18,730 bases of DNA, taken from IMG/VR virus record IMGVR_UViG_2695420817_000007. One strand, written 5' to 3'. The position numbers and the translations under genes were made by a program. Shown piece by piece: positions 1,398 through 17,735 of the stretch. Positions within the stretch are counted from its first letter, which is position 1, and every line of letters begins with the position of its first letter. The notes beneath the pieces were generated by a model that saw only the letters and a list, made by a program, of their open reading frames with translations, made no database searches and was not told the DNA's origin. The stretch is from a virus. Lineage: Duplodnaviria; Heunggongvirae; Uroviricota; Caudoviricetes.

Positions 1398-1997
1398 TTA
1401 TGCTTGTTTACTCCTTGATTCCACTGGGGAAGCTGGCCACTCAATATCCGGTGCTCTTGATGTATCAACACGGTTCAGCAGCACTCGATACTTCTTCCAG
1501 GCTTCCAGCAACGAGATTTCTTCCTCCGTTGCGATTTCCAGATCTACAGCATCCTGAAGTGGCGCAATATGCTCACTGGCTACCTGCATCAGGCTGTTTT
1601 TTGTTTCTTCTGCCTCCCGGATCCGGAACAGTTTTTCTGCTTCCGTATCCTTCACCCAGGCTGTGCCGTTCCACTTCTGATATTCCCCTTCCGGCGACGA
1701 CCAGGTAACATTTTCCGGTAACGGACCGAGTTCAGAAATAAATAACGCGTCGCCGGAAGCCACGTCATAAACCGTTTTACCACGATGATCTTCAACGAGA
1801 TGCCAAGACGCCCCATCACTGTTGAAAACAGCCACGAAGCCAGCTGGAATATCTGGCGGAGCAATATCAGTACTATTTGCAGGCAGACCTGTATGAGGTG
1901 GAATGTATGCATCATCTTCACCAATAAATTCATTGGTTCCGACCAGCAGATTATAAATTTTTATGGTTCGTGGTTGTTCACTCATTCTGAATGCCAT
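1398..1997 (-). CDS. G: Tail fibre assembly protein (P2 gpG-like chaperone)
   Basis: 199-aa ORF immediately downstream of the tail fibre gene with 1-nt junction; tail fibre assembly position and size. Confidence 0.8.
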
Positions 1998-12520: not shown

Positions 12521-14272
12521 ATGATTCAGGACGCTTTTGTGCGCCAGCGTGCGCGGCAACTTTACTGGCAGGGTTATCCGCCCGCAGAAATATCACGTCT
12601 GATGGGAATAAACCCGAACACGATTTATGCGTGGAAAAAACGCGACCAGTGGGATGAAACACCACCCGTGCAGCGTGTCACGCAGTCCATCGATGCGCGC
12701 CTCATCCAGCTTACTGAAAAACAGAATAAAACAGGTGGTGACTTCAAGGAAATAGACCTGCTGACCCGGCAGCTTAAAAAACTGCATGATGGCCAGCCGG
12801 ATGCGACGGCCACAGGAAAGAAAAGCCGGGCGAAAAAACTCAAAAATCATTTCACGCCGGAACAGATTGCCGCACTGCGGGAAAAAATCATCAGCAGGCT
12901 GGAGTGGCATCAGCGGGGCTGGTTTGACTCTCTGACCCTTTGCAGGGAAGCCGGGATACGTAACAGGATGATCCTGAAATCCCGACAGATTGGAGCGACA
13001 TGGTATTTTGCACAGGAAGCACTGCTGATGGCGCTGCGTGACGATGTGGCGCAACCTTACCAGCGTAACCAGATTTTTTTGTCTGCGTCGCGTCGTCAGG
13101 CGTTCCAGTTTAAAAGCATTATTCAGAAGGCTGCATCTGAAGTTGATGTGGAGCTGAAAGGGGGCGATAAAATCATCCTCTCCAACGGCGCAGAGCTGCA
13201 TTTTCTTGGTACTTCTGCTGCGACGGCACAGTCCTACACGGGCAATTTTTATTTTGATGAATTTTTCTGGGTCAGTCGCTTTGCTGAACTGCGCAAGGTG
13301 GCTGGCGCTATGGCAACCCTCAGCGGACTGCGGCGCACCTACTTCTCCACGCCATCCACCGAAACGCACGAGGCATACGCCTACTGGAACGGCGACCGCT
13401 GGAACGAGAAAAAGGCCACGCATAAACGCCAGCGTTTTTCTGTTGACTGGAAAACGCTGCATAACGGGCTTATCTGCCCTGACCGGACGTGGCGGCAAAT
13501 TGTCACGCTGGAAGATGTGGTTAATCACGGCTGGAAACACACCGATATCGACGAAATTCGTGATGAAAACACCGAAGACGAGTTCCTCAATCTCTATATG
13601 TGTGAGTTTGTCCGCGAAGGGGAATCGGCATTTAACCTGAATATCCTGATTGGCTGCGGTGTTGACGGATACGACGACTGGAAAGACTGGAAACCTTTTG
13701 CTCCCCGCCCGATGGGGAATCGTCCGGTATGGATTGGGTATGACGCAAACGGCAGCAGTGGCAACGGCGACAGCGGCGCTGTGTCCGTGGTGGTTCCTCC
13801 GGCTGTTCCTGGTGGCCGTTTTCGAACGGTGGAGACGCGACGCGTTCAGGGGCTGGAGTTTGAAGAACAGGCCAGAGTCATTGAAGAGTTCACGTGTCGC
13901 TACAACGTGGAACACATCGGCATTGATGTGACGGGCGGGAACGGGGAGGCTGTTTATCAGATAGTGAAGCGGTTTTTCCCTGCTGCTATTCCGTACACCT
14001 TCACGCTGTCATCCAAACGGTCGCTGGTACTGAAAATGCTGCAAATAATGCGTGCCGGACGGTGGGAATACGATCGCGCCGAACGCGAGCTGGTCGCGGC
14101 CTTTAACGCCGTGCGTAAGGTGAAAACACCGGGCGGCTTTATCACTTACGAAACGGACCGCGCGAGGGGGATCAGCCACGGCGACCTTGCGTGGGCAACC
14201 ATGCTTGCTGTCATTAACGAACCAATTGGCGGCGAAGGAGAAAACGAGCGTTTCACGGTTATGGAGTTCTGA
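12521..14272 (+). CDS. P: Terminase ATPase (large) subunit P
   Basis: 583 aa; Walker A-like KSRQIGATWYF; size and position match P2 gpP. Confidence 0.9.
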   Translation: MIQDAFVRQRARQLYWQGYPPAEISRLMGINPNTIYAWKKRDQWDETPPVQRVTQSIDARLIQLTEKQNKTGGDFKEIDLLTRQLKKLHDGQPDATATGKKSRAKKLKNHFTPEQIAALREKIISRLEWHQRGWFDSLTLCREAGIRNRMILKSRQIGATWYFAQEALLMALRDDVAQPYQRNQIFLSASRRQAFQFKSIIQKAASEVDVELKGGDKIILSNGAELHFLGTSAATAQSYTGNFYFDEFFWVSRFAELRKVAGAMATLSGLRRTYFSTPSTETHEAYAYWNGDRWNEKKATHKRQRFSVDWKTLHNGLICPDRTWRQIVTLEDVVNHGWKHTDIDEIRDENTEDEFLNLYMCEFVREGESAFNLNILIGCGVDGYDDWKDWKPFAPRPMGNRPVWIGYDANGSSGNGDSGAVSVVVPPAVPGGRFRTVETRRVQGLEFEEQARVIEEFTCRYNVEHIGIDVTGGNGEAVYQIVKRFFPAAIPYTFTLSSKRSLVLKMLQIMRAGRWEYDRAERELVAAFNAVRKVKTPGGFITYETDRARGISHGDLAWATMLAVINEPIGGEGENERFTVMEF

Positions 14273-15318
14273 TGAGCAGAAAAAATAAAAAAGTGCGCAT
14301 GAGTTCACGCATTGATCTCGCTGATGCGCTCAGGAAAGAATCATCGCTCAGTGCATTCACATTTGATGGTCCTTATCGCCTGACCGGGCATGACCTGCTG
14401 GACAATATGTACTGTGCTGATAACGGGCGGTGGTATGAAACCCCGGTGGACTGGTACGGTCTGGCAAGAGCCGCCCGGCAAACGTCCTGGCATCAGTCTG
14501 CGCTTTACTTTAAGCGCAATGTATTGCTCGGTTGCTACATCCCGCACCCGCTGCTTTCCCGGCAGGATTTCTCGGCGCTGGCGCTGGACTGGTTTGTGTT
14601 CGGTAACGCATTCCTTGAGCTTCGGAGTAATATGCTCGGCGAACCACTTAAATTACGGCACGCACTGGCGAAATACGTGCGACGCGGAAGCGATCTTGAA
14701 TCATGGTGGTATGTGCAGGATGGCAAGGACGCGTTTCAGTTTCGCCCTGGCAAAGTGTGCCACCTGATGAATCCGGACATTAACCAGGAAATTTACGGCA
14801 TGCCGGAATATCTTGGCGCATTACTCTCGGCCAGCCTGTCTCATTCGGCGGACATGTTCAGAAAACTGTATTACGACAACGGATCCCACGCCGGGTGCAT
14901 CATCTACATCGGTGCAGCGCAGGTAAACCGCGAAAGCATGGACTCCCTGAAAGAAACGCTACAGGGGGCACGTGGTGGTGGTGCGTTTAAAAACGTGCTC
15001 ATTCATGCGCCCAACGGGGGCAAAGAGGGGGTGCAAATTTTGCCGTTCCAGCAGATCACCGCAAAGGATGAGTTCATGAATGTTAAGGCGGCATCCCGTG
15101 ATGATGTGCTGGCTGCGCACCGCGTTCCGCCGCAACTGATGGGGGCGATGCCGGGCGAAAAAAGTGCGTTTGGTGATGTGGAGAAGGCCGCGCGGGTTTA
15201 CGCAATTAACGAGCTGATGCCCGTCATGGAGGCCATGAAGCACATCAATGACTGGCTTGGCGAAGAGGTGATCCGCTTTAACCCTTACGCACTGTTAGAT
15301 ACCCAGCCCACATCCTGA
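14272..15318 (+). CDS. Q: Portal protein Q
   Basis: 348 aa; start overlaps the P stop (TGATG); size and position match P2 gpQ. Confidence 0.9.
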   Translation: MSRKNKKVRMSSRIDLADALRKESSLSAFTFDGPYRLTGHDLLDNMYCADNGRWYETPVDWYGLARAARQTSWHQSALYFKRNVLLGCYIPHPLLSRQDFSALALDWFVFGNAFLELRSNMLGEPLKLRHALAKYVRRGSDLESWWYVQDGKDAFQFRPGKVCHLMNPDINQEIYGMPEYLGALLSASLSHSADMFRKLYYDNGSHAGCIIYIGAAQVNRESMDSLKETLQGARGGGAFKNVLIHAPNGGKEGVQILPFQQITAKDEFMNVKAASRDDVLAAHRVPPQLMGAMPGEKSAFGDVEKAARVYAINELMPVMEAMKHINDWLGEEVIRFNPYALLDTQPTS

Positions 15319-15343: not shown

Positions 15344-15369
15344 CCGGGGCATAAAAAATTTATGCCCCG
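15344..15369. other. Perfect 11-bp inverted repeat hairpin just downstream of Q
   Basis: cggggcataaa-aaaa-tttatgccccg; no adjacent T-run. Possible operon-end structure or packaging-region element. Confidence 0.4.
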
Positions 15370-15772
15370 ACTCTCCAGCTCCTGTATCAGTCAGATAATT
15401 TCACGACGCTTTCCTGCTTATTGCCATCATCGACGGTCAGATTCTTACGCAATCCCACTGCGCTGACTGCATGTTCTCGCCGCCTCAGTGCGATTTTGAC
15501 GGCCTTACCTTTCACCCCATCAAACCAGAATCCCTCACGTATTTTTCACGCTCAGCGTGAGAAATACGGCCATTCTGTTGTATCTCTGCGACATCGTTCA
15601 GGGAATGCTATTTACCCCCTGAAACGCGGGCTGTTCCCCCGTCACCTGCGCGCAGAAAAAACGCGTTTTTTTGTGCACGTACGGATCCTTGACGGATCCA
15701 GCCACCACGCGGGCCGGAAGTACAAAAAGTCGTTCAAAAAAATTGTGCAAACTTGTGCACTATCGTGCAAAC
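15370..15772. other. Non-coding, palindrome- and repeat-rich region in the position of the cos/packaging site
   Basis: No credible ORF. Contains a 15-bp palindrome tcacgctcagcgtga (about 15546-15560), a duplicated acggatcc (about 15681-15699), and four TGTGCA-type motifs (about 15670-15772). The exact P2/186 19-nt cos sequence as I recall it is not present. Confidence 0.35.
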
Positions 15773-15795
15773 AAAAAAAGCGCCTTATCGGCGCT
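15773..15795 (-). terminator. Rho-independent terminator for the minus-strand 89-aa gene
   Basis: agcgcc-ttatc-ggcgct stem-loop preceded on the plus strand by aaaaaaa (a T7 run after the hairpin on the minus strand), 10 bp downstream of the ORF stop at 15805. Confidence 0.65.
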
Positions 15796-15804
15796 TCAAA
15801 AGTA

Positions 15805-16074
15805 TCAATTGTTGCTGTGTATTAATCGCCAACCACGAACATATGCTTCATAGGCATCTCTGTGCCTTACAGTTCCAGCCTGGCTAAACGGAATGTTAGC
15901 TAAAACTAAATCATTCTGAGCCATAGCGCGTCCTTCAAGCGCATCTTTTATGCCTAGCTCAAAAGCACAGGCAGCGCATTTGTGCCGACCTTCTTGTCCT
16001 TGATATTCAGGGAGAGACAGAAATGTTGGATTATAACGATGAGGGTTCTTGCAAATACCTGTTTTAGCCCGCAC
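15805..16074 (-). CDS. Hypothetical protein, 89 aa, accessory gene
   Basis: GTG start with GAGGT ribosome-binding site 7 nt upstream; dedicated terminator downstream; GC about 45%, lower than the phage backbone. No family recognised by eye. Confidence 0.45.
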   Translation of the reverse strand: MRAKTGICKNPHRYNPTFLSLPEYQGQEGRHKCAACAFELGIKDALEGRAMAQNDLVLANIPFSQAGTVRHRDAYEAYVRGWRLIHSNN

Positions 16075-16095
16075 TTTATTTACCTCATAGGAAAA

Positions 16096-16237
16096 ATATG
16101 CGTGCCTTTACAGAGGTGCGTGTAAGCAATAAAATATACGACGCACATTTTGATTTACTTCGGAAGGCACGCATATCAGGTTAAGTGAGTCCGACCGAGT
16201 TTTACGCCCCAATAGTTGCTGCTATTGGGGCGTTTTG
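16096..16237 (+). ncRNA. Candidate structured small RNA or leader: long stem-loop plus intrinsic terminator
   Basis: 13-bp inverted repeat atatgcgtgcctt / aaggcacgcatat (about 16096-16108 and 16164-16176) enclosing an inner gtgcgt/acgcac stem, then a canonical terminator cgccccaatag-ttgctg-ctattggggcg + TTTTG (about 16205-16237). A 28-codon ORF (16098-16184) with an AGGA site is embedded, so a small peptide gene is not excluded. Confidence 0.4.
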
Positions 16238-16413
16238 CATGGACAATGCCGCGCAATTATCTTGTCGCTCACAATGCGAACGATCTTACAAAAAGGCACA
16301 TTACTGTCAAGATAATTGATCGTTTTAATCGATAGATAATAGACAATCTATTTGTTTAACAGATCGATTATTGAAGTAAGTGTGCCAAATGGAATGATAC
16401 TGTCTCTATAAAC

Positions 16414-16455
16414 GTGAGCATTTTCTCTATAAACGTGAGCATTTTTCGCGCAGAT
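16414..16455. repeat. Two tandem 21-bp direct repeats immediately downstream of parR
   Basis: ctctataaacgtgagcatttt repeated twice head-to-tail; ends a few bp before the parR stop at 16460. Confidence 0.8.
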
Positions 16456-16459
16456 GCTT

Positions 16460-16771
16460 TTACTCAGGAAATAACGCCCGGATATTCCCAGCCATCTGGC
16501 TGGTTATCTTAGCCACTGGTGCAGACTGTGCTTCAAACTTTTTTGAGCTGATTTGTGTCACAGGTAACATCTCATCATCAGCCCATGCGGCCAGTCGGTA
16601 AGCCTCTGCCGGATTCGTCTTCAGAAGTGCCAGCCCGGCCAGAAAAGCCACGCGTTGGCCGCTTTTGCGGGCTTCTGGTGTAAGGCTGTCCAGCCAGGCG
16701 CATGCTTCTCCTTCGTTCTTGACGGCAGCTGGCTTCAGATAGAAACTTATTCTTCTGGTTGGTGTCGTCAT
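16460..16771 (-). CDS. parR: ParR-like centromere-binding adaptor (type II partition)
   Basis: 103 aa; N-terminal segment RRISFYLKPA...AWLDSLTPEARKSGQRVAFLAGLAL parallels R1 ParR/StbB (RRTIAFKLNPD...DTLDSIPQGERSRLNRAALTAGLAL) as recalled; directly downstream of parM. Confidence 0.75.
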   Translation of the reverse strand: MTTPTRRISFYLKPAAVKNEGEACAWLDSLTPEARKSGQRVAFLAGLALLKTNPAEAYRLAAWADDEMLPVTQISSKKFEAQSAPVAKITSQMAGNIRALFPE

Positions 16772-16775
16772 TGGT

Positions 16776-17735
16776 TTACTCCTTGTTCATTGCGTACAGC
16801 CCATTAACCAGAGCAAATTGTGGCACTCCGTCCGCGATGAAAGTCGCATTAACTCCGCAGGCTTCGCGGATAGCGGGTGCCACAATCTCCGCCCCGCCAC
16901 CGACAACCATCACCCGCCCGTAACCCGAAAAAACCGCCAGCGCGCGGATCACGCGTTGTTTCAGTGTTTCTTCCTTTTCACGAATAACCGCCATCAGGCT
17001 GGCGTAATGCGCGTCATTGTGGATGTGCTGGCGCAGCCAGGCTTCATCATGGCGATGTTCGATAATGGTATTGGCGATGTGGTGACTGGTGCGCATACCG
17101 TTAGTGGCCATCACCGACAGTACGGCATCGGCCATCAGGGAAACGCCTACGTGTGGATCGCAAAACACCTGGCTGATACCTGCCAGTTGTCCCTGAACCT
17201 TTGCCACATCCAGCGTGGTTCCGCCTAAATCCACAATCAGCAGGGATTCAAACGGACTCATGTCAGCCAGTGCTTTAAAACCAGCCGGAATGGATTCAGG
17301 CATAACCCGTACGTTACGGATAGTGAATGCTTTTCCGTTCTGGTACGCCACCGGGCGCATGACGTTTGCTTTTTTGCGGTTGATGTTGGCCATGTCCGGC
17401 TGTGCGTTTGTGTCGAAATATTCGCTCAGTGGCAGGGTGACAACCACATCCACTTCCTGTGGTGTGATGCCTGATTTGACCAGCGCGTGATGAATGGCAA
17501 TGACATTCACATCGCTGTACTGGTATTGCGTGTCGGTCGTCTGGACAAAGCGATCGCTGACCGGATCAAAACCATAGCGCACGCCATCAAGCATGTAGTT
17601 CGCGGGCTGCGTGCCACCGAACGGCGCAGACCATTCCGACTTGAAGCTGTTCGGGCTGATGGCGTTGCGGCGTTCGCCGTTCTCAGTCCATGCCAGCTTG
17701 ATGTTGGTGGAGCCGTCATCGATACAAATTTTCAT
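16776..17735 (-). CDS. parM: ParM-like actin-family segregation ATPase (type II partition)
   Basis: 319 aa; N-terminal phosphate-1 motif MKICIDDGSTNIKLAW (R1 ParM: MLVFIDDGSTNIKLQW); further matches YSDVNVIAIHHAL, VMPESIPAG, LIVDLGGTTLD, GVSL, FSGY..V.VVGGGAEI, LVNGLY. Confidence 0.9.
   Translation of the reverse strand: MKICIDDGSTNIKLAWTENGERRNAISPNSFKSEWSAPFGGTQPANYMLDGVRYGFDPVSDRFVQTTDTQYQYSDVNVIAIHHALVKSGITPQEVDVVVTLPLSEYFDTNAQPDMANINRKKANVMRPVAYQNGKAFTIRNVRVMPESIPAGFKALADMSPFESLLIVDLGGTTLDVAKVQGQLAGISQVFCDPHVGVSLMADAVLSVMATNGMRTSHHIANTIIEHRHDEAWLRQHIHNDAHYASLMAVIREKEETLKQRVIRALAVFSGYGRVMVVGGGAEIVAPAIREACGVNATFIADGVPQFALVNGLYAMNKE

Follow-up and report, generated by a model that had tools for sequence, protein, structure and literature searches.

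In IS10 (Tn10), RNA-IN and RNA-OUT are transcribed from facing promoters, the antisense transcript, short and stable, can base-pair with the 5′ portion of the mRNA, and a GATC in the core hexamer of the sense promoter lets Dam methylation gate expression. In the R1 CopA/CopT and ColIb-P9 Inc/repZ systems, an antisense stem-loop pairs with a leader stem-loop upstream of the ribosome-binding site, and translation is altered indirectly via the structure of the leader. Tight multi-layer control, mobility, and prophage location are typical of type I systems such as hok/sok and symE/symR. P22 sar, P1/P7 C4, and lambda OOP regulate phage developmental genes at fixed genome positions.

Here, we describe a locus that resembles each of these systems in part. 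It lies in an 18,730-nt stretch of DNA (hereafter, the window, taken at its full length) belonging to a P2-like (Peduoviridae, Xuanwuvirus-like) prophage of E. coli, directly upstream of a gene for an 89-aa protein. We think it probable that facing promoters at this locus give rise to an 89-aa mRNA with a folded leader and to an antisense RNA that controls its translation in cis. Both promoters are conserved among homologous loci, the hairpins covary, and the comparison identifies the strand on which each hairpin works. The features of the locus, in window positions, are as follows.

15777–15797, minus strand: intrinsic terminator of the 89-aa gene, which closes the cassette (terminator scan: 8-bp stem, then TTTTTGTTT)
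15805–16074, minus strand: 89-aa gene with a GTG start, the putative regulated gene (phrog_3941, function unassigned)
16075–16276, minus strand: predicted leader (5′ UTR, ~200 nt) of the 89-aa mRNA (fold; layout in all lineages)
16096–16176, minus strand: hairpin B of the sense leader, with a 13-bp inverted repeat as its outer stem
16098–16184, plus strand: 28-codon open reading frame (ORF), judged not to be a gene
16107–16135, plus strand: antisense promoter inside hairpin B (promoter scan, 10/12 matches)
~16142–16237, plus strand: predicted cis-antisense RNA of ~95 nt (start ~7 nt past the −10, end at the terminator)
16204–16237, plus strand: hairpin A, the probable intrinsic terminator of the antisense RNA (12-bp stem, 6-nt loop, UUUU; covariation)
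16283–16310, minus strand: sense promoter of the 89-aa gene (promoter scan, 10/12 matches)
16460–16771, minus strand: ParR-like gene, neighbor of the control region
16776–17735, minus strand: ParM, neighbor of the ParR-like gene

The module shares with IS10 its facing promoters, a short predicted antisense RNA able to pair with the 5′ part of an mRNA, and a GATC in the core hexamer of the sense promoter. However, the IS10 overlap covers the mRNA 5′ end and the ribosome-binding site, whereas the predicted overlap of the module (16142–16237) does not; its antisense RNA would end ~65 nt upstream of the start codon and could not directly occlude the ribosome-binding site. The gene under control is not a transposase, and there is no sequence or Rfam similarity to IS10. 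As in CopA/CopT and Inc/repZ, the antisense RNA is predicted to consist of a stem-loop and a terminator, and an alternative pairing of the hairpin B 3′ arm with the start region suggests a comparable logic, but the module has no conserved leader peptide and its gene is not a replication gene. An antisense promoter inside the target leader, a folded mRNA, a sequestered ribosome-binding site, and carriage by prophages recall hok/sok and symE/symR, from which the module differs in its 89-aa, soluble-looking protein of unrelated sequence. Finally, the predicted RNA is a short prophage-encoded antisense RNA ending in an intrinsic terminator, as are sar, C4, and OOP, but the module moves among unrelated phage types together with an accessory gene. 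We therefore regard the module as a member of none of the systems compared and as a previously undescribed case of what appears to be cis-antisense control of a structured leader.

Rfam 15 returned nothing at gathering score in 15700–16500, where the best sub-threshold matches covered only the terminator hairpin (ctRNA_pGA1, 22.1 versus 45 bits; sar, 22 versus 43; Spot 42, 19.4 versus 80), and gave no match at the module in ten homologous loci. The hairpin and terminator sequences were not found in the literature searched. Two named candidates were rejected: Esr41 (EcOnc14) of EHEC, which is located in SpLE1 and not in this prophage, and the Pas small RNAs, whose preprint does not mention P2-like phages. 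Elsewhere on the contigs of homologous loci, C4 antisense RNA and isrK were found above gathering score (L106, 266–464; L045, 4657–4840), unrelated to the module, and in the tail-gene part of the window 1456–1654 (minus strand) is a full-length match to Rfam IS009 (RF02111, 218.5 bits) that overlaps long ORFs.

Facing promoters in a mobile prophage cassette

Gene order in the window runs from the terminase and portal (14272–15318) genes through the cos-side intergenic region, the 89-aa gene, and its control region to the ParR-like gene, ParM, and a replication gene; the 89-aa, ParR-like, and ParM genes are all encoded on the minus strand. ParM and ParR (StbA/StbB) form a complete plasmid-type partition pair (16460–17735, minus strand) that has the replication gene on one side and cos on the other in this integrated P2-like prophage, with just ~76 bp upstream of parM available for a centromere. 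An 11-bp perfect hairpin right after the portal gene (15345–15369) is probably the portal terminator, and the palindrome AAAAAACGCGTTTTTT lies at 15656–15671 in the cos-side intergenic region. Just downstream of parR, 16403–16444 is a perfect tandem duplication of the 21-bp unit TCTCTATAAACGTGAGCATTT. Most other E. coli copies appear to hold one unit, since alignments to them span 780, not 801, bases, and we regard the duplication as a candidate for either a variable repeat or a segment of a centromere-like site.

Of 5,426 complete E. coli genomes, 166 carry the locus on the chromosome (identity at least 99%), O111 and ETEC strains among them, and the 89-aa gene is frequently unannotated in these genomes. 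The 35 E. coli loci compared are 98.9–100% identical and hold no covariation information, none in the 13-bp stem included; SNPs among them are confined to loops, the linker, or one terminator position. Homologs of the protein (50–64% identity) are encoded in Providencia, Arsenophonus, Enterobacter, and Frischella and on numerous contigs of viral or metagenomic origin. When the 89-aa protein alone was used as query, a word-indexed search returned near-identical copies only, and a profile of distant members was needed.

The 89-aa gene and ~230–400 nt of upstream DNA recur as a cassette at differing prophage positions. In P2-like phages, the cassette is flanked by cos and the replication gene (beside parMR); elsewhere, it occupies the lambdoid gap that separates the Q antiterminator from the holin, the nin region, or a site downstream of a cI-like repressor. 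All of the homologous genes retain 340–400 nt of non-coding upstream DNA and a downstream terminator of their own. The ~230-nt upstream region always contains the same four elements, namely a sense promoter, hairpin A, hairpin B, and an antisense promoter. From this organization, we interpret the region as the control region of a self-contained prophage accessory gene, or moron.

The sense promoter consists of a −35 TTGACA (16310–16305), a 16-nt spacer, and a −10 TAAGAT (16288–16283), with transcription predicted to start at ~16276. A GATC at 16318–16321 is located 8 nt upstream of the −35, and a second, at 16282–16285, overlaps the −10 (TAAGATC, 16288–16282), so that a GATC falls in the core hexamer of the promoter, with an equivalent in most lineages. 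Of 28 non-redundant homologous loci, 26 have the layout GATC-N6-8-TTGAnn-16/17-TAnnAT(C), frequently accompanied by another GATC over the −10. Across the enterobacterial control region, GATC is the commonest 4-mer palindrome and is enriched approximately four-fold (3.8 sites per 260 nt versus 0.92 expected). These sites may make expression from the sense promoter sensitive to Dam methylation.

We note that the GATC sites form pairs of constant spacing. The sense promoter is bracketed by two sites 36 bp apart (in the window and in L042, L091, L106, and others), and a second pair, 29–30 bp apart, brackets the antisense promoter in most lineages, with one site in the spacer and one at the transcription start; the latter pair often reads GAGATCTC and GGGATCC and is lost in the E. 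coli version present in the window. Two inverted repeats also lie at the sense promoter. The first, immediately upstream (16312–16371), is a 26-nt imperfect repeat rich in ATCGAT/GATC that is common to sister P2-like parMR loci (L083, 1220–1285) and not to other lineages, and it may be an operator or a ParR-binding site. The second is an 11-bp perfect repeat, CAATTATCTTG/CAAGATAATTG, at 16254–16264 and 16308–16318, which brackets the promoter core with one arm over the −35 and the other at ~+12 to +22 of the leader; in L083, the single sister locus checked for this repeat, we saw no counterpart.

Facing the sense promoter at a distance of ~134 bp is the antisense promoter, with a −35 TTTACA (16107–16112), a 17-nt spacer, and a −10 TAAAAT (16130–16135). 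TTTACA-17-TAnnnT, with exactly this spacing, occurs at the same place in 54 of 55 unique upstream regions, which is every one that has the module; the remaining one (L151) is an unrelated sequence that matched TGTAAA by chance. The spacers are unrelated between lineages, and the −10 varies (TAAAAT, TAGACT, TAAACT, TAATCT, TACAAT, TACGAT). The conserved promoter is located on the opposite strand within the predicted target transcript, as expected of a cis-encoded antisense RNA.

The inverted repeat and the predicted antisense RNA

The arms of the inverted repeat, ATATGCGTGCCTT (16096–16108) and AAGGCACGCATAT (16164–16176), are 13 nt each, 100% complementary, and 55 nt apart, and folding predicts an inner stem within the repeat, as the original prediction from the sequence of the window had described. 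They form the longest perfect close inverted repeat of the entire 18.7-kb window, in which the chance expectation for a close 13-bp repeat is ~0.03 (estimated as 18,730 positions × ~100 spacings × 4^−13). A second hairpin (16204–16215/16222–16233) has a perfect 12-bp stem and a 6-nt loop. Compared to shuffled sequences, 16090–16240 folds far more stably on the plus strand (−58.2 kcal/mol, z = −6.1) and on the minus strand (−51.7 kcal/mol, z = −5.95). The 28-codon ORF (16098–16184) is present as reported, and the GTG of the 89-aa gene at 16074 lies 22–24 nt from the repeat, in line with the ~23 bp first given. Retrons have flanking inverted repeats and occur in P2-like phages, which prompted a comparison; a retron msr-msd was rejected, as the arms are only 55 nt apart and no reverse transcriptase is encoded nearby.

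One proposal for this region was an independent plus-strand RNA of ~140 nt (16096–16237) containing the whole hairpin and the terminator and acting either as a small RNA or as the mRNA of a fold-back-controlled 28-aa peptide. We consider it very unlikely, even though the plus strand folds stably, an AGGA precedes the ATG of the 28-codon ORF by 5 nt, and the orientation of the terminator fits that strand. The promoter scan found no promoter-like site on the plus strand upstream of the ORF or of 16096, and the conserved promoter is inside the hairpin, which would make the RNA begin past the ATG. In homologs, hairpin B contains U·G pairs that are valid only on the other strand, that of the 89-aa gene, so we set aside a ~140-nt transcript folded through the 13-bp stem.

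Family searches returned no protein-family match for the 28-codon ORF, no counterpart was found among the homologous loci of other lineages, and a mirror-image ORF of 29 codons is present on the minus strand (16085–16174). Because the palindrome holds ATATGCG...CGCATAT, the 28-codon ORF follows from the symmetry of the repeat, which produces the minus-strand ORF as well. It is also not contained in the predicted antisense RNA, since its ATG at 16098 precedes the conserved predicted transcription start (~16142). We conclude from these comparisons that the ORF is a by-product of the palindrome, not contained in the plus-strand transcript that the promoter data support. For annotation, we recommend leaving the 28-codon ORF uncalled and assigning the terminator to a predicted, so far unannotated small RNA. 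A leader-peptide coupling via the minus-strand 29-codon ORF, which ends at the Shine-Dalgarno sequence of the 89-aa gene, was likewise rejected: this ORF is not preceded by a Shine-Dalgarno sequence, and the ATG of the 5′ arm is missing from other lineages or followed there by a stop within 1–10 codons.

Transcription from the antisense promoter is predicted to start at ~16141–16143. The resulting RNA would span the right arm of the repeat, a U-rich linker, and the terminator, leaving out the left arm and the ATG at 16098, and it has a predicted fold of −35.6 kcal/mol (z = −4.2). On sequence grounds, a plus-strand RNA is in all likelihood real.

Hairpin A would provide the 3′ end. It had been called a textbook intrinsic terminator, which is generous: the U-tract is short (only TTT after the stem, or UUUU counting the closing A-U pair), and the consensus terminator scan did not call the 16204–16237 hairpin. 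The base of the 12-bp stem is GC-rich. Loci of the E. coli type and of group 1, a subgroup of the homologous loci, have a good U-tract; in Providencia, Arsenophonus, and Frischella, it is poor or absent. Stem sequences change by lineage with pairing kept (CCCCAATAG/CTATTGGGG, CCCTGATAG/CTATCAGGG, CCCTGACAG/CTGTCAGGG, and CCCGATAT/ATATCGGG), and per-lineage folds contain 33 G·U pairs in the antisense orientation versus 10 in the sense orientation. This conservation and strand bias support a terminator role for hairpin A as part of the plus-strand antisense RNA.

From group 1, we derived a covariance model comprising the 5′ tail, stem-loop 1, and terminator of the predicted antisense RNA. It gave full-length antisense-strand matches just upstream of the gene in every lineage, with E-values from 1e-21 to 0.02. 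Sister loci of the window matched with E-values between 1.6e-6 (L084) and 9e-4 (L080), most at ~1e-5. In the window itself, the model matched at the terminator only (16203–16232, plus strand; E = 0.15), owing to divergence in the 5′ part of the E. coli version. Among 54 distinct sequences, 19 of the 21 pairs in the two helices of the antisense RNA have compensatory changes, 90.4% of cells pair compared to ~50% when slid, 230 cells are compensatory versus 53±7, and the covariation score is 0.546 versus 0.173, counts that are inflated because the alignment (A7) was fitted to the covariance model. The predicted antisense RNA thus appears to have a conserved structure and a 3′ end of its own, again as expected of a cis-encoded antisense RNA.

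A structured leader and its possible control

Within the leader of the 89-aa mRNA lie the strand complementary to hairpin A, then hairpin B, and, ahead of the start codon (16072–16074), the Shine-Dalgarno sequence GAGG (16083–16086). On the minus strand, 16045–16276 folds with −72.3 kcal/mol (z = −4.0), and in this fold the 13-bp stem is extended at its base by pairing between ACCU (16178–16181) and the Shine-Dalgarno sequence. Leaders are similar in length and layout across all lineages. The 3′ arm of hairpin B (16108–16096 on the minus strand) follows the family-invariant TGTAAAG, which is found in the 3′ arm 34–47 nt before the start codon; the outer arms vary by lineage and yet remain complementary. 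In most lineages, a short hairpin C sequesters the Shine-Dalgarno sequence.

RNAalifold on an all-lineage MAFFT alignment recovered no structure because the arms are too diverged for sequence alignment. We replaced this alignment with a subgroup alignment, per-sequence folds, and the covariance model. On the gene strand of group 1 (n = 18), RNAalifold recovered hairpins B and C. In these hairpins, 94.4% of cells pair, a share that drops to 35–48% once partners are slid; compensatory changes occur at five pairs, and none of 500 shuffles reached the covariation score (0.231 versus 0.132). Covariation across related prophages had been named as a check on the stem, and its pairing is indeed kept in homologous loci. 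U·G pairs are frequent in hairpins B and C in the sense orientation only (e.g., 16/18 at one position), and since the other strand would have C·A mismatches in their place, the hairpins act on the strand of the 89-aa gene. Per-lineage folds of the Shine-Dalgarno hairpin agree, with 26 G·U pairs in the sense and 4 in the antisense orientation. We conclude that the 13-bp stem most likely forms in the minus-strand leader of the 89-aa mRNA; the strand assignment of this exact stem rests on positional homology because the near-identical E. coli copies are uninformative.

The variation of the arms between lineages bears on the suggestion that the repeat is recognized as DNA, as an operator, a cruciform, a partition centromere, or a Dam/SeqA site bound by, for example, ParR or the 89-aa protein. 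The arms bracket a promoter, parM-parR is directly upstream, and the approximately four-fold enriched GATC sites hold fixed positions flanking both promoters in most lineages, all of which would suit such an element. We nevertheless regard it as highly improbable. The arms have been replaced by unrelated but complementary ones, G·U pairs included, which is the signature of an RNA helix rather than of a conserved protein-binding sequence, and there is no GATC inside the hairpin of the window. As for a centromere, parC is always linked to parM-parR and consists of iterated ParR-binding repeats, whereas no iterated repeats are present within 16096–16237 and the module occurs without parMR in most lineages, e.g., in lambdoid prophages.

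An alternative that retains the leader structure is that the leader acts alone in cis, as a temperature, ligand, or protein sensor, with the antisense promoter silent or incidental and hairpin A a leader stem. Hairpins B and C are clear sense-strand structures that hold the ribosome-binding site, and in our folding model most of that site stays sequestered both with and without blocking of the antisense-covered region. However, RNA structure alone hardly explains an exact 17-nt spacing of TTTACA and TAnnnT with unrelated spacers, the G·U bias of hairpin A favors the antisense strand (33 versus 10), and the two helices of the antisense RNA covary. We therefore judge a leader acting alone to be unlikely, and cis-antisense control of the translation of the 89-aa protein, as suggested by the conserved layout, to be the most likely reading. 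To this extent, the conserved promoters and covarying hairpins support the original prediction of a regulatory RNA and of a small RNA-controlled module that includes the 89-aa gene.

Under cis-antisense control, the sense promoter (16310–16283) would produce an 89-aa mRNA with a ~200-nt leader in which the ribosome-binding site is held in structure, and the antisense promoter in hairpin B would produce an RNA of ~95 nt that ends at hairpin A. This RNA would be able to pair along its whole length with the central part of the leader, which takes in hairpin A and the 5′ arm of hairpin B. By capturing the 5′ arm, it could free the 3′ arm, which may then pair with the Shine-Dalgarno and start-codon region; alternatively, the duplex of antisense RNA and leader may trigger cleavage. 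Either route would keep the 89-aa protein off in the lysogen.

Two observations are consistent with the alternative pairing. The 5′ arm resembles the translation start region in several lineages, so the 3′ arm is able to pair with either: in the sister loci, GAGGTGT corresponds to the Shine-Dalgarno sequence GAGGTAA; in group 1, GAATGTTTT corresponds to ..GAATG at the start codon; and in the window, ATGCGTGCC corresponds to GTGCGGGCT. In partition-function folding with the antisense-covered stretch blocked, predicted start-codon accessibility averages 0.16 instead of 0.28 (in the window, 0.05 instead of 0.36), a change that is modest overall and reversed or absent in a few lineages (L117, L155, L043). 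Because the 3′ arm can pair with the start region and blocking reduces start-codon accessibility, we favor repression over activation as the predicted outcome.

The 89-aa protein and GATC restriction-modification

The profile search gathered 1,248 clusters of ~87–92-aa proteins with invariant C8, H12, R30-H31, C33, C36, Q65-A66, and R70. The only match of the 89-aa protein was to phrog_3941; no Pfam family, PADLOC match, or PDB sequence match was found. AlphaFold2 models the protein as a helical globule (pLDDT 87), for which there was no structural neighbor in PDB or BFVD, and the sequence reads as hydrophilic, without a hydrophobic stretch.

These properties bear on a special case of the antisense model, a type I toxin-antitoxin system in which the 89-aa protein would be toxic and the antisense RNA its antitoxin. 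The multi-layer control (a sequestered Shine-Dalgarno sequence together with an antisense RNA), autonomous mobility, and prophage location speak for such a system. We hold it to be doubtful: by its sequence and model, the 89-aa protein does not resemble a small (usually under 60 aa), hydrophobic, membrane-active toxin and is confidently predicted to be folded and helical, it has no PADLOC or Pfam match, and homologs in Bacteroidota occur inside restriction-modification operons without such a leader (three loci read), a setting that argues against intrinsic toxicity.

In Bacteroidota, the homolog was inside a DpnII-type GATC restriction-modification cassette in all 11 loci examined (L004–L006, L207–L214). 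The usual order is a D12-class methyltransferase, the DpnII endonuclease, the 89-aa homolog, and an N6_N4 methyltransferase; in L004 and L005, the homolog is fused to a C-terminal domain of ~190 aa with no assigned function. Together with the GATC enrichment of the enterobacterial control region, this linkage suggests a functional tie to GATC methylation, which we offer as a lead and not as a finding.

The comparison thus defines an uncatalogued sense/antisense RNA module in prophages of several enterobacterial genera, with strong comparative support. The module marks the 89-aa family (~1,250 clusters) as one that cells keep under unusually tight control, and the independent linkage to GATC restriction-modification is a testable lead to the role of the protein in phage-host conflict. 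It is conceivable, although we give it only a small chance, that the cassette works as a switch, responsive to GATC methylation, for a hitherto unrecognized accessory factor of GATC restriction-modification systems. If so, the protein would be made only when the prophage GATC sites are un- or hemi-methylated, e.g., after entry or during rapid replication, and it would alleviate restriction, boost methylation, or bind GATC DNA. Such a protein would be a counterpart of lambda Ral for GATC systems, with epigenetic and antisense-RNA control combined.
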